A DNA stretch of 64,000 nt from a virus. The notes below the pieces were generated by a model, which was not told the origin of the DNA, made no database searches, and saw only the letters and a list, made by a program, of their open reading frames with translations. The stretch spans positions 77,670-141,669 of the IMG/VR virus record IMGVR_UViG_3300020469_005214; one strand, 5' to 3'. A program made the position numbers and the translations under genes. Position 1 is the stretch's first letter. Each line of letters opens with the position of its first letter. This document shows, one piece after another, positions 36,537 to 41,985 of the stretch.

Positions 36537-36991
36537 GTGTCTGTTATAAAATATTAATTTAAATAGTTGACAGATCAAAAAAAATAGACTTAAATAAATA
36601 ATATAAATTAAAAAAAAAGAAAGAAATATATTTCCTGAAATAATGTATCAGAAATCCCGATACAAAAAAAGTTTTTGTGATCCAAATAAGTGTATCCAAA
36701 ATCCTGATACAGCTTGGCTGTATCAAAAAATAGATATAAATAAAAAAAATAAAATAACTTTTAATAATCCGAAATAAAAGAGCCAGGAGAAAAAATAGGA
36801 TAATATTATTTGGAGGTGATAAAAAAAATTATTCTATATTTCCGGCTATTAGCGGTGCTTATGATATGTATTAGTTAGACTTATAGGCAGTAAAATTTTA
36901 TTCTATATTATGCTCTGATTTTTTTTAAAAAAAACAATTTATTTTATCGTTAGGTGTTGACACGTTTTAAAAACTACTTTATTTTATAGGC

Positions 36992-37063
36992 CGTTCCTTC
37001 TCAGTTTTCCGCAAGTAATGAATCTTTCCCTCGACGGGGTTTGAAGACGCTTGGACTGAGATA
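36992..37063 (+). promoter_or_regulatory. structured 5' leader, copy 1
   Basis: CGTTCCTTCTCAGTTTTCCGCAAGT...GCTTGGACTGAGATA; shared with the 38524 copy. Confidence 0.7.
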
Positions 37064-37094
37064 TCTAACCACAAAAAAAAGTAAGTTATATATT

Positions 37095-37907
37095 ATGAAA
37101 ACATCAATCGAAACACTACTGTCTTGGAATCCAACTGCTACACCTCTCTCTGATGAGTTTGGTAAAGTTGGTTACCAATCTATCCGTCGCGATGATAACA
37201 ACTCTTTAATTGGAGTAGTTGGTCAAAAGCGTTCCATTATCTCGAATCGCGAGTGCGTCCAGTCTATCGTAGACATGGCAAACTCATTAAACGTTCCATT
37301 TGGAAACCCTTATGTTAACGAGTTTAACGGAGGCGGAAAAATTCACGTTTCTTTCCCTCTACCAGAGGAGAGAATACAAGGTGATTCTTTTAGCCCAGAA
37401 TTGCGTTTTACTTTCTCACACGACTCTAGCGAGCGTAGGAGAGTCTATTTCGCTTATTCACGTAACGCTTGCTCTAACATCTTTGCAAGTGCTGTTAAAA
37501 AAGGAGAGGGAATTTTTGCTAAGTTTTCTCTGAATCACTCGGAGAATTTCGCTAGTCGAATCTCTGGTTTTCCAGAAAGAATCAAAGAGTTAAGATTTGA
37601 GACAGACAGTGCTATTCAGCGTTTGCAGTCTATTAAAGTAGTAGACCCTGCCCCGTATATCAAACGCCTTATAAAAGGCGAGGGAAAGCGTTCTGACACG
37701 ATCAGAGAAGAGATTGAAACTCTTTTCCGTTCTGGTCGCGGTAACGTAGGAGAAACTGCTTATGACATCTTTAACGGTTTTACTGAGTATTTAAACCACT
37801 CAGCGACATACAAAGAAACCGAAAATAAGACGTCTGCTGAAAATCGCATAAGTAGATTAGTTAACACCGATATCGTAGATGTCGCGAGAGAGTTAGCTAG
37901 AGTCTAA
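37095..37907 (+). CDS. DUF932/DUF945 family protein, paralog 1
   Basis: FSHDSS, RNACSN, GETAYDIFNGFTEYLNH. Confidence 0.8.
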   Translation: MKTSIETLLSWNPTATPLSDEFGKVGYQSIRRDDNNSLIGVVGQKRSIISNRECVQSIVDMANSLNVPFGNPYVNEFNGGGKIHVSFPLPEERIQGDSFSPELRFTFSHDSSERRRVYFAYSRNACSNIFASAVKKGEGIFAKFSLNHSENFASRISGFPERIKELRFETDSAIQRLQSIKVVDPAPYIKRLIKGEGKRSDTIREEIETLFRSGRGNVGETAYDIFNGFTEYLNHSATYKETENKTSAENRISRLVNTDIVDVARELARV

Positions 37908-37914
37908 AAATTAC

Positions 37915-37951
37915 AAGGTCGTATTGGAAATTCTGATACGACCTTTTTTTT
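37915..37951 (+). terminator. Rho-independent terminator whose stem is a YGTATY-N9-GATACR box
   Basis: AAGGTCGTATT...GATACGACCTT plus T run. Confidence 0.8.
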
Positions 37952-38523
37952 GGCGTAATAATACGAAATAATTTTTTTTCAAATTGTATTTGAAATCTGG
38001 ATACAAAAATATAAAGCAGTTTTTTTTATCCGAAATAAAAGAGAAAATTTTTATTAGAGAGCTTGGCTCTCTAAAAATAGAAATATATTTTCCGAAATAA
38101 TGATTAATTTTTTATTACAGAGCTTGGCTCTGTAAAATAGTTTTTTCTCTCTCAAATAATGTATTTGAAATTCTGATATAAAAAAAAAGAATTATATTCC
38201 CCAAATAAAAGAAAAACTTTTTATTAGAGGGCTTGGCCCTCTAAGTATAACCAGCAAATAAAAAAAAATAATTCTAAATAAATAAGCGCGTAATAAAGAA
38301 AAGTTTCCATAAATAAATAAGCGTATATAAAAAAGAATAATTTTTCCTGGTGCCGAGCAAAACCGGGTATTAGCCGGTCTTATAGCAAGTATTAGATTAT
38401 CTTATGGCATACCGCCAGGCGGGATTTTAACGGCCTATTTAGTGGAAAAATTTTTTTTATTTTTTTTCATCTATTTGCGCCTATGGACTTGACTCACTTA
38501 AAAAACTATCCTATTTTATAGAT

Positions 38524-38593
38524 CGTTCCTTCTCAGTTTTCCGCAAGTGATGTATCTGCCTTTGATCGGGTAGGGGAAACTTGGACTGAGATA
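38524..38593 (+). promoter_or_regulatory. structured 5' leader, copy 2
   Basis: CGTTCCTTCTCAGTTTTCCGCAAGT...ACTTGGACTGAGATA. Confidence 0.7.
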
Positions 38594-38616
38594 CTAACCA
38601 TAAAAGAAAGTAACTA

Positions 38617-39429
38617 ATGAAAACACTAAATGCTCAACAAGCACTCGAACTCACAATCGTCGAATCTAAACTCAACTGCGAGTTTAAGCAGATCGACATT
38701 AATGGCGAGTATGCCGCGACTGTAGGTATCAAACGCTCGATACCGACATTCGAGAATCTGCTCGATCCATTCGTTCACTTGTCGAACGGCTTACAAGTCG
38801 ACTTCGATCCTAAGATCGAATTGTTCCGCTCAAAGTTCGGAACTGAAGGCGCATCCTACGCGATGTCAATGCCACTCGGTAAAATCGAACTTGGCGGACG
38901 CGAGACCGAAACTCGCATCATTCGTAGAGGATCATTCAATTCATCCGCATCCGATTCATTCGGCATTGAGATGATGGTAATGATTTGCTCAAACGGGATG
39001 ATGGGATGGAAAGCCGAAAGCGAAAGCGGACGCGCTAAGAGTCGCTTCTCACTCAACTGGGAATCGAACGCAGGAAACAAAGTCAATGCAATGCTAGACG
39101 GCTTTTCCTCAATGCAGGATCGATACATTCGGATCGCGGACGAACTTAGAGATATCAAACTCTCTAAGGAACAAGTCGACAATCGACTTGAGAAGCTATT
39201 CGGAAAAGACTCAAAGCAGTCGGATCGAGTTCGCGAACAAGTTCAAGATTTGTTCGTAAGTGGTAAGGGTAATCGTGGCGAGAATGCATGGGACTTGTTC
39301 AATGCCGTCACCGAATATCAGAATCATGAACGAACTTACAAAGTGACTTCAGTTTCGTCCGATGAAAATCGTCGAAAGGGAATTCTCGACATTGACTTCG
39401 ATTCACTTGCCGAAGTATTGGTAGCATAA
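38617..39429 (+). CDS. DUF932/DUF945 family protein, paralog 2
   Basis: SFNSS, MICSNGM, GENAWDLFNAVTEYQNH. Confidence 0.8.
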   Translation: MKTLNAQQALELTIVESKLNCEFKQIDINGEYAATVGIKRSIPTFENLLDPFVHLSNGLQVDFDPKIELFRSKFGTEGASYAMSMPLGKIELGGRETETRIIRRGSFNSSASDSFGIEMMVMICSNGMMGWKAESESGRAKSRFSLNWESNAGNKVNAMLDGFSSMQDRYIRIADELRDIKLSKEQVDNRLEKLFGKDSKQSDRVREQVQDLFVSGKGNRGENAWDLFNAVTEYQNHERTYKVTSVSSDENRRKGILDIDFDSLAEVLVA

Positions 39430-39478
39430 TGGAAATTATAATTCTTACTTTCCTTCTGCTAGTCTTGTTCTAAAAATC

Positions 39479-39511
39479 AAAGTCTCACTCGAAAGGGTGG
39501 GACTTTTTTTT
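39479..39511 (+). terminator. Rho-independent terminator
   Basis: AGTCTCACTC-GAAA-GGGTGGGACT plus T run. Confidence 0.85.
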
Positions 39512-40103
39512 ATGCCTTCCCCAAGAAATAGTTGTATTGAAAATTTGGATACATAAAAAAGGTTTTTATAATTCTAAATAGTGTATTGAAAATCTTGATA
39601 CGACTTTAGTCGTATAGCAGTTTTTAAAATCGGAAATAATTGTATCCATAATCTTGATACGGCATTGCCGTATAAAAGTTTTTATCCCCGAAATAAAGGG
39701 ACAATTTTTATTAGAAGGCTTGGCCTTCTAGATGGTTTTAGTGTATCGAAAATCTTGATACAATCACCGGTCCCATTAGCAAAACTGATTCTTAGTATTA
39801 GAAAATTTAATAGCTTTTTTATTTGACAAGCCCGGATTTTTATGTTAGCCAAAAGTCTTGGTACTAGCGCAGGGGTGGTAGTTCTCCCGAACGTTTTATC
39901 GCACCCTTAACTATTACAATGATTATTTTTTTATACTTTGCAAGCTTTTTTTTATTTTTTTTTATTTTTTTTCTTAGACCGGGAACCTGGGACCTGGCAT
40001 CCCTGCAAAGTTTTTTTATTTTTTTATTTGACAACCTATTTTCTCTATCCATTGTCTTTTATGTCGAGGGGCAATTCAGCCCAAACAACTCGACCTACAT
40101 AAC

Positions 40104-40457
40104 ATGATAAAAGCTATATTAATCGATCCAACCTTGCCAAACTCTATGTATGGCGGACTTCCCAACTTCTCAACTGTTGAAGTTGGACATTATACTGACA
40201 TTGTAAAGCACATCGGATGTTCGCTTTTTACTTGCGTTCGTTTTCCCGATGGAAAGCACATTGCATATGTCGATGACGAAGGTCTCATTAACGGGACTGA
40301 GTTTGGCGTTCAATTTACTAAAGACATTTACCCCGAACCTTTGGCAGGCAGAATTTTAATTCTTGGCGACGATGGAAAAGGCGGAGATGCTGATTGCGAG
40401 CTTGACATTGCAGAAGTGCAAGCTAAAGTTAAAGGCATCGTTCAATTTTCGATGTAG
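40104..40457 (+). CDS. DUF3846-like protein
   Basis: MIKAILIDP, YVDDEGL, PLAGRILILG. Confidence 0.7.
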   Translation: MIKAILIDPTLPNSMYGGLPNFSTVEVGHYTDIVKHIGCSLFTCVRFPDGKHIAYVDDEGLINGTEFGVQFTKDIYPEPLAGRILILGDDGKGGDADCELDIAEVQAKVKGIVQFSM

Positions 40458-40503: not shown

Positions 40504-40771
40504 ATCTCAATATAAAAGTTTTTCCTTCTCAAATATTTACGCCAGGTTTTTTTCACGGCTTGGCCGTGAAGATTTATTCCAGCAGGATGAACTGCACAGA
40601 TGTTCACTACCTGGATCAGCAGGCTGAAGTGATCAGATGTTCACTATTTATACAGGCGAAAAAAGATTAAAAAAGAATTTGACATAGCGAAAAAATTCTA
40701 TTTTATTTTTAAGCATAGCACATCTGCTATTGATAACTCAAAGGTCGCGATTTCCTTAATCGCTTAACACT

Positions 40772-41137: not shown

Positions 41138-41547
41138 ATTGCAAATAGCGTGATCGGACTTTACATCTGATCACGTTTTTTTTATTTAAATAATGTATCC
41201 AGGTTTCTGATACATAAAAAAGTTTTTTTTTATTTAAATAATTGTATCCGGATTTCTTATACAGCTTGGCTGTATAAAAGTTTTTAATAGCTAAATAAAA
41301 GTTTTAAATAAGCGAAATAAATGTAGGGGCCTGGACCTGGAGCTTATGAAAAAAATGAAAAAACCGGCTATTAGAGATTCTTATGCTGGACGGGCTTTGT
41401 ATTAGATTTGCTTATACGGGGTAAAGTAGTGAACAGGTGAACACTAAAAAAAAATTAATCTTTTTTATTCAATTTGCTTGCAATCGCCGATTTTATAGCC
41501 ACACTTTAGATCATACCAATTAAGGTATATTAAACCACATCATATAA

Positions 41548-41985
41548 ATGAAAAAAATCGAAGCACTACAAAACCTACGCAAGGGCACATTTGCCGTTGC
41601 TCGCATTGTATCGGATAAGAAACCTCTTAAAGCATACAGTCAGCACAAAATCACTAAGGTTGTCTTGGCAACTGTTCGCACAGGAGTTGAGTTTAAAAAC
41701 CTTGCAGTCAATGCAGACCGCGAGACTGGTTCTTTACCTTGGGGGCAATGGGAGGTTTACCCTTATGCAATCGCCCACAAGGGTAATCGCTACATCCGTC
41801 TTTACCTTGGCAACTCAATGAAAGTTTTCTATCTAGTAGATGGCGTAAAGGTTGCAAGCCAAGTTGCAAAGGCAATGCTTCCAAAAAGCAAAGCAGGTGA
41901 AAAGCCAAGTTGCATAACAGTAAAAGAAAATGGCTTGGTAAGCATAAAGCAAAACGGAAAGGAGTTGCTAAATGGAATTAGTTAA
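41548..41985 (+). CDS. hypothetical basic phage protein
   Basis: LPWGQW..YPY.I.HKG..Y.RLY pattern. Confidence 0.7.
   Translation: MKKIEALQNLRKGTFAVARIVSDKKPLKAYSQHKITKVVLATVRTGVEFKNLAVNADRETGSLPWGQWEVYPYAIAHKGNRYIRLYLGNSMKVFYLVDGVKVASQVAKAMLPKSKAGEKPSCITVKENGLVSIKQNGKELLNGIS

Follow-up and report, generated by a model that had tools for sequence, protein, structure and literature searches.

The DNA considered here is the last 64 kb (64,000 nucleotides, hereafter the window) of a 141.7-kb IMG/VR virus record, IMGVR_UViG_3300020469_005214, with a completeness estimate of 77%; the whole record is designated G000 and the window is C1:77670-141669. Its genes include those for a DnaB-like helicase, a DNA polymerase, a large terminase and three tRNAs, and the GC content is about 34%. 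Metagenome runs (marine, seawater and viral) of about nine studies contain DNA nearly identical to positions 36800-39500: the source is an abundant, uncultured marine phage. Within this region lie two single-gene units, each comprising a promoter-like site, a leader, a gene of the DUF932 family and a terminator-like hairpin, and it is the two leaders that concern us. Both proteins match Pfam DUF932 (expectation values, E, of 9e-13 and 5e-10) and are only 29% identical to each other over 244 amino acids, in keeping with the strong divergence claimed in an earlier, sequence-only note on this DNA. Their leaders nevertheless share a hairpin that, on fair structural evidence, is conserved, covarying and specific to DUF932 genes in a small clade of marine phages.

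Two leaders with a common base

An identical 25-mer, CGTTCCTTCTCAGTTTTCCGCAAGT, opens both leaders (36992-37016 and 38524-38548, both on the + strand). These are its only copies in the window and in the entire 141.7-kb record, and it had no match in 100 dinucleotide shuffles. A second shared sequence, CTTGGACTGAGATA, closes both leaders. The minimum free energy (MFE) and centroid structures predicted by RNAfold have the same architecture in both: a 7-nucleotide tail, an 8-bp helix, P1 (strands UCUCAGUU/GACUGAGA), a 5-nucleotide bulge on the 5' side, UUCCG, a 5-bp helix, P2 (CAAGU/(G/A)CUUG), an internal loop and an apical hairpin, with 17-22 bp altogether in the three helices. The earlier note had described the common opening and closing sequences and the P1/bulge/P2 arrangement, all of which hold up. 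It had also called the apical hairpins different. In sequence they do differ, but they are not unrelated, since both have stems of at least 4 bp closed by U.G, with related loops (CGAC and UUGAUC, and CUGACC in the related locus L010). Writing p1 and p2 for what belongs to paralogues 1 and 2, the complete P1/bulge/P2/apex fold is the MFE structure in window p1 and window p2 and in loci L010, L015 and L012. Thermodynamics alone would not pick out the leaders, whose stability does not exceed that of dinucleotide shuffles for p1 (z of -0.27) and exceeds it only slightly for p2 (z of -1.67).

Identity between the two leaders is patchy. The basal strands are identical at 25 of 25 and 14 of 14 positions, the 30-odd nucleotides of apex that separate them have diverged, and the promoters are 62% identical against a baseline of about 55%. 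The earlier note had itself raised a recent promoter duplication as the alternative to an RNA with a function, and a recent duplication or gene conversion of a promoter-plus-leader cassette would be in line with the promoter and TATTAG-N5-CTTAT boxes that the two upstream regions also share, as well as with a basal module that is the same within the genome yet different at 7 positions in L010, as concerted evolution would have it. A single tract would, however, have homogenised the apex too, and two perfect blocks flanking a diverged apex, next to a promoter of merely 62% identity, therefore argue against a recent duplication or a single conversion tract. The apex, moreover, follows the gene across phages. 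The window, L006 and L010 all have the p1 type (CCCU-CGAC-GGGG, extended by UCUUU/GAAGA), and the p2 type (loop UUGAUC) recurs in groups A and B, and even in D, of the leaders considered below; the leader therefore seems to date back to the duplication of the DUF932 gene. If one adds that every helix substitution keeps its pairing and that between orthologues the leader outlasts its flanking spacer, a cassette duplicated without function at the level of RNA becomes improbable.

The basal module does vary over time. It differs at 7 paired positions in L010 and entirely in type D leaders, and within one phage it does not differ between the paralogues. What we infer from this identity as the simplest explanation is co-evolution with one shared trans-acting reader, although short, patchy gene conversion may be another source of it.

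Pairing and distribution among related phages

Homologues of the two proteins were collected by protein searches (61-99% identity for paralogue 1, 53-96% for paralogue 2), with their DNA context taken from viral and metagenome collections. A covariance model, R1, was built from eight distinct leaders and scanned over 74 sources (293 kb) and the whole phage record, a search upstream of DUF932 genes that the earlier note had proposed as a check. It returned 14 matches, all on the coding strand, 25-32 nucleotides upstream of a DUF932 start codon and in front of no other kind of gene. Eight distinct sequences are represented, and the related marine phages that carry them fall into about four lineages. 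The element keeps a constant position and orientation with respect to this one class of gene. Two of these matches are the window leaders and two more lie before p1 and p2 of L006; L005, L012, L013 and L014 each have one before p2 (91-99% identity to the window protein), as do the five loci of group B, L015-L019 (87%), and L010 has one before p1 (72%).

In P1 and P2, 102 of 102 sequence-by-pair cells are standard pairs, whereas sliding the 3' partners by 1-3 columns leaves 21-47% paired, and only 7-9 of 500 column shuffles reached the observed pairing values. Two pairs are doubly compensatory (U-A to C-G in P1, A-U to G-C in P2), and the remaining, one-sided changes go by way of G.U. In the apical stem, segmented with guidance from the structure, the outer pair appears as CG, UA, GU, AU or GC and the next as CG, GC or GU, and none is broken. 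Population variants keep pairing as well, with A-U in place of G-U in L005, U-A in place of C-G in L006 and U-G in place of U-A in L012. Of the unpaired parts the bulge is conserved best: L010 retains 5 of 5 positions, and group B has changed only one, from G to A. Homologues thus exist and double compensatory changes are found in P1, P2 and the apex, where the earlier note would have taken a lack of homologues and covariation for the mark of a recent promoter duplication. Pairing is kept by compensatory substitutions across independent lineages, albeit few of them, as in a conserved, structured cis-regulatory RNA.

The G.U pairs also bear on strand and on molecule. They fit an RNA of the + strand and would be C.A mismatches on the other, so that, judged from the alignment, wobble pairs suit neither a DNA palindrome nor the opposite strand. 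It is conceivable that TCTCAGT...ACTGAGA, together with the invariant DNA from +1 to +25, serves as an operator for a transcription regulator or affects promoter escape; most copies have identical bases at the first 25 transcribed positions, and GTTCYTT just 3' of the promoter is common even to leader types C and D. Nonetheless, the half-sites are about 50 bp apart, G.U wobbles and changes of A-U to G-U and G-C to G-U maintain RNA pairing and not DNA symmetry, and the apical stem, too, covaries. We therefore regard an operator at the DNA level as very improbable.

The coding capacity of the leader is also a poor candidate for the selected property. A conserved AUG after P2 opens an upstream reading frame of 7-8 codons (MNLSLDGV, MYLPLIG, MDLPSDRG), at the same position in window p1, window p2, L006 and L010, which could couple its translation to expression of the gene. 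Against such a leader peptide, group B has UUG and a different, 15-codon frame; L006 has two substitutions, both non-synonymous, that compensate each other exactly in the stem; the peptide is poorly conserved; and the AUG is inside the folded region. A leader peptide is hardly credible on these grounds.

Comparison of orthologues by global alignment gives leader identities of 73-100% and coding-sequence (CDS) identities of 67-86% at the nucleotide level. For window p2 and L013 the values are 100% (leader), 86% (CDS) and 70% (upstream spacer), and for window p1 and L010 they are 73%, 67% and 54%, the last lying at the baseline of about 55% for unrelated AT-rich sequence. The leader is the sole non-coding part that can still be aligned between orthologues.

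In the R1 scan, the element is absent before the 65%-identical p1 homologue in L008, before p2 homologues at 53-58% identity (groups C and D and others), which have other leaders, and from the distant DUF932 loci L039-L064 and L071-L082. Because close orthologues as well as distant DUF932 loci do without it, an obligatory RNA cofactor of DUF932 is contradicted; the earlier note had entertained that role, which is unlikely for an element absent from orthologues at 53-65% identity. The type C leader has GAACUAUGUUC, a U run and two small hairpins; type D has a 5' hairpin of about 68 nucleotides followed by a second domain; the remaining leaders are of several short, single-hairpin types. What type D has in common with the window leaders is its apical hairpin (GGCU-UUGAUC-GGCC), a 5' YGUUCYUU and the overall lengths of the arms. 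The basal helices of type D could not be aligned with those of types A, B and p1; a joint alignment shares only the apical hairpin.

The second domain of type D leaders (L024:1385-1500; L025, L026, L032 and L067-L070) is itself conserved; about 110 nucleotides long and showing nested pairing (GGGAUUCUAG...CUAGAAUUC...GGAAAUCCC), it separates the 5' hairpin from the start codon and has no match in Rfam. Two or three tandem DUF932 paralogues, with separate promoters and differing leader types, are found in L023-L026, L029, L031, L032 and L067-L070. The DUF932 family is expanding in this phage clade, and its leaders are being swapped.

Wider searches yielded little. A scan of prokaryote genomes (185,579 species) gave 26 pattern matches, about the number expected by chance, none of which scored as the element (best E 0.077). 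Pattern scans of IMG/VR recovered only L005 and L006 besides chance matches (among them matches inside a coding region, L011), and 36700-39500 had no match in a phage GenBank collection with blastn in distant mode. With Rfam 15 at the gathering threshold, the whole window has only 3 tRNAs and one tmRNA-like (transfer-messenger RNA) match, all elsewhere, and at E up to 10 nothing in 36900-38700 overlaps either hairpin; a sub-threshold, chance-level match to STnc50 (E 6.8; 18.5 bits, where the gathering score is 55) extends 2 nucleotides into leader 2. Rfam models had no match in fifteen related loci, and neither twister nor other known motifs were found there. The tmRNA-like match (RF00023, 28363-28432, + strand, 49.6 against 47 bits) comprises 70 nucleotides nominally spanning a 374-position model and is not called by ARAGORN; it is perhaps a fragment resembling a tRNA, or else an unusual tRNA-like gene of the phage.

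Gene setting and surroundings

The features of the two units are collected in Table 1. An in-frame, TTG-started extension of paralogue 1 (288 amino acids; 37041-37094), which would overlap the 3' half of leader 1, was considered and almost certainly is not translated, because homologues start at the ATG at 37095 and an in-frame stop lies just upstream of paralogue 2.

Table 1. Features of the two DUF932 units (window coordinates)
Feature	Position	Strand	Remarks
Promoter-like site, paralogue 1	36957..36985	+	TTGACA-17-TATTTT; 10/12 consensus matches; predicted transcript start ~36990-36993
Leader 1, whole	36992..37061	+	R1 covariance model, 92.5 bits
Leader 1, 5' tail	36992-36998	+	
Leader 1, P1	36999-37006 with 37054-37061	+	
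Leader 1, bulge UUCCG	37007-37011	+	
Leader 1, P2	37012-37016 with 37049-37053	+	
Leader 1, apical stem	37028-37031 with 37036-37039	+	loop CGAC, 37032-37035
Linker 1	37062..37094	+	A-rich, unstructured (UAUCUAACCACAAAAAAAAG...), up to start codon; no Shine-Dalgarno sequence
DUF932 paralogue 1	37095..37907	+	270 amino acids
Terminator-like hairpin and T-run, 3' of paralogue 1	37915..37945	+	
Promoter-like site, paralogue 2	38489..38517	+	TTGACT-17-TATTTT
Leader 2, whole	38524..38591	+	R1 covariance model, 92.3 bits
Leader 2, tail	38524-38530	+	
Leader 2, P1	38531-38538 with 38584-38591	+	
Leader 2, bulge	38539-38543	+	
Leader 2, P2	38544-38548 with 38579-38583	+	
Leader 2, apical stem	38558-38561 with 38568-38571	+	extendable to 7 bp; loop UUGAUC, 38562-38567
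Linker 2	38592..38616	+	A-rich (UACUAACCAUAAAAGAAAGUAACUA), up to start codon
DUF932 paralogue 2	38617..39429	+	270 amino acids; AlphaFold2 (AF2) model, predicted local distance difference test (pLDDT) 90.8
Terminator-like hairpin and T-run, 3' of paralogue 2	39479..39506	+	

In the whole record, only 6 of 109 long open reading frames have a Shine-Dalgarno-like 4-mer upstream, and start regions are A-rich, both of which fit a host that does not rely on Shine-Dalgarno pairing. The word (A/U)AACCAC(A) is repeated about 15-25 nucleotides before several starts (those of both DUF932 genes and of the gene at 41548, and in type B and D leaders) and may be a translation-initiation signal of such a host.

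Further along the same region, two other promoters of early type and of the form TTGACA-N17-T.TTTTAT (at 40030-40103 and 40680-40771) precede unrelated 5' hairpins, for example GUCGAGGGGC...GCCC...CUCGAC, so that early transcripts of this phage would seem generally to carry a hairpin at their 5' end. The spacers between units (36640-36730, 37930-38260, 39520-39770 and 41180-41300) consist of recurring modules: hairpins capped by GC-TTG-GC, GTATY-N9-GATAC palindromes and the words (A)TCCGAAATAA(A/T) and ATAAATAAGCG. Paired TATTAG-N5-CTTAT boxes stand 60-150 nucleotides upstream of promoters, and the spacer words recur in the related phages L008 and L024-L038. In L008, about 950 nucleotides 3' of the DUF932 gene (L008:5810-6769) contain no called genes; a TTGACG promoter-like site is followed there by a GC-richer leader of about 270 nucleotides before a small gene, which may be another structured RNA.

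A candidate operator and its meaning for DUF932

Each DUF932 unit would consist of a promoter, a leader hairpin of about 70 nucleotides, an A-rich linker of about 25-32 nucleotides, the CDS and a terminator, with the leader acting in cis as a 5'-untranslated-region (5'-UTR) RNA element under purifying selection. In the mechanism that we propose, the basal module common to both paralogues (P1, the invariant bulge GUUUUCC(G/A)CA and P2) would be recognised by a single trans-acting factor; the apical hairpin is specific to each paralogue. This factor, most plausibly a protein of phage or host origin and perhaps DUF932 itself, would bind beside the ribosome landing zone or alter 5'-end-dependent decay and so set the translation or the stability of both mRNAs jointly. 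Transcription from the predicted start and binding of a factor are steps that we infer, as is the direction of the effect. We judge the case to be about evenly balanced for a factor-recognised 5'-UTR operator or stability element that couples the post-transcriptional expression of both DUF932 paralogues. The earlier note's "new cis-regulatory RNA" is, in any event, the class that the leader fits best, given its pair-preserving evolution and the lack of a match in Rfam. In a narrower version, either the DUF932 proteins or a single early phage protein dedicated to the task would recognise the basal module (P1, a UUUCCR bulge and P2) as an operator, and the paralogues would thereby come under joint regulation; this we find rather doubtful.

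Contigs from RNA libraries of oligo-dT or whole-genome-amplification type cover 37006-37291 (leader 1 into the p1 CDS) and 38457-38607 (leader 2), as well as 38309-38459, upstream of the p2 promoter. They have the length of single reads, carry neither start nor strand information and may be DNA carry-over. Pairing of the 5' leader with the 3' trailer does not rise above that of shuffled sequences (p1 is worse than shuffles; the p2 value is 0.225). An antisense partner for bulge or tail was sought in the phage genome, which offers only one or a few short, chance-level complements.

Several observations weigh against a factor-read operator. The leaders of p1, L010 and L006 are no more stable than shuffles (z -0.27 to -0.5), and the MFE structure of L006 p1 deviates from the consensus in P2 and apex. 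The hairpin ends 25-32 nucleotides upstream of the AUG, and nothing is masked. Only about four independent lineages are represented, and nearly all P1/P2 covariation comes from L010, too few for statistics of R-scape grade. Orthologues at 53-65% identity carry different leaders, which suggests that the element is dispensable or replaceable. L010 is without a clear promoter directly upstream, so that the leader may not keep its 5'-terminal position there. Hairpins of unrelated sequence head other early genes of the phage too, in agreement with a generic role. Finally, no known RNA-binding fold resembles that of DUF932 as modelled with AF2 for paralogue 2: a Foldseek search of PDB was empty at E <=0.001. 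The best VIA match of the model is an uncharacterised cyanobacterial protein (Z 7.4), a score of the kind that VIA rates as uninformative; a PDB sequence search, too, gave nothing significant. The model thus offers no hint of RNA binding, either for or against.

The generic role would be that of a 5'-terminal hairpin which, like that of ompA in E. coli, shields the mRNA from 5'-end-dependent decay and needs no specific factor. The stem begins about 7 nucleotides from the predicted 5' end, and early genes starting at 40104 and 40772, as well as the other DUF932 leader types, likewise open with unrelated hairpins. For a stabiliser, pairing suffices, yet the bulge, tail and basal strands are identical between paralogues of 29% identity, and nearly identical also in group B and L010. 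Protection of the ompA type requires a stem within a few nucleotides of the mRNA end, and 7 unpaired nucleotides are at its limit. L010, furthermore, has another hairpin directly upstream and no obvious promoter there. A purely protective hairpin is in our opinion unlikely, if worth keeping in mind. An irregular, bulged hairpin of about 20 bp might alternatively be cut by an RNase III-type enzyme to mature or destabilise the mRNA, in the manner of the early R sites of T7 and the lambda N leader. Its 17-22 bp and asymmetric bulge would suit that purpose, and the RNA-library contig upstream of the p2 promoter would permit read-through transcripts in need of processing. But that contig may, as noted, be DNA carry-over, each gene has its own promoter and terminator, and a conserved single-stranded bulge sequence is not a known determinant for RNase III; a processing signal, accordingly, has a low probability.

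That the leader might be riboswitch-like, as the earlier note had also suggested, is not borne out. Its place in the 5' UTR, its conserved internal bulge and the failure of any known family to match it are what one might expect of a new small-molecule riboswitch. Scanning of 36992-37094 and 38524-38616, however, found no intrinsic terminator, the start region is unpaired in folds of leader plus linker, and an expression platform, whether a terminator or an alternative pairing that masks the start, was found in neither leader. Few unpaired nucleotides are invariant (the 5-nucleotide bulge and short flanks only), the element is confined to about four lineages of one phage clade, a very narrow distribution, and the gene that follows it is not a metabolic one. 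We consider a riboswitch to be highly improbable.

Among known systems, the closest parallels appear to be autogenous or otherwise protein-read 5' operators and 5' stabiliser hairpins, the leader itself falling outside every Rfam family. Like the operators of T4 genes 43 and 32 and the ribosomal-protein leaders S8 and S15, it is an irregular 5'-UTR hairpin with a conserved asymmetric bulge and compensatory changes, belonging to one gene family, and, as in autogenous translational operators, it borders the ribosome landing zone on the upstream side. It differs from them in ending 25-32 nucleotides before the start, with no overlap, in its unrelated sequence, and in belonging to a phage whose host apparently does not use Shine-Dalgarno pairing. 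With the ompA 5'-UTR stem-loop it shares a place near the predicted mRNA 5' end, where such hairpins head most early transcripts of this phage, but about 7 unpaired nucleotides precede the stem, and bulge and tail are conserved beyond the needs of protection.

The radC, STAXI and traJ-II motifs are conserved structures of unproven function that precede early "establishment" genes of mobile elements (Weinberg et al. 2010, PMC2864571). The leader is likewise a non-coding structure before early genes of mobile DNA, and RadC neighbours the DUF932 gene in the related locus L008; however, it is a single long hairpin in a double-stranded DNA phage, and not a set of repeated pseudoknots in a conjugative element, and the models concerned (RF01754, RF01728 and RF01760) fail to match it even at E up to 10. 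The putL and putR sites of phage HK022 are similarly two related cis-acting RNA elements in one phage, each directly 3' of an early promoter. The put sites, though, are two stem-loops that act on RNA polymerase for terminator read-through, whereas the leader is one hairpin, in single-gene units that have their own terminators and give no sign of read-through. RNase III sites of the T7 R1.1 type are irregular hairpins of about 20 bp with an internal unpaired region, present as related copies in a phage early region; the leader, in contrast, is promoter-proximal and not intercistronic, and its loop is on the 5' side only.

DUF932 proteins (TIGR03299, "phage/plasmid-like protein") are frequently encoded in early or entry regions, be it of phages, plasmids or integrative and conjugative elements (ICEs). 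To our knowledge the family has no known function, and in the literature library that was searched DUF932 receives passing mention only, never in a title or abstract. An identical, selected leader before paralogues of 29% identity offers a concrete handle on DUF932 and leads one to expect a trans-acting partner common to both. A further gain is a candidate RNA motif from phages whose marine hosts are probably Shine-Dalgarno-independent, a setting in which post-transcriptional control is poorly known. The reach of the finding is small, being confined to one clade of uncultured marine phages, and its general importance is limited unless the idea of DUF932 binding holds. If DUF932 does bind the leader, RNA binding would be the first molecular activity for a widespread, function-less family of phages, plasmids and ICEs, and could explain the elaborate leaders before DUF932 genes in many mobile elements.

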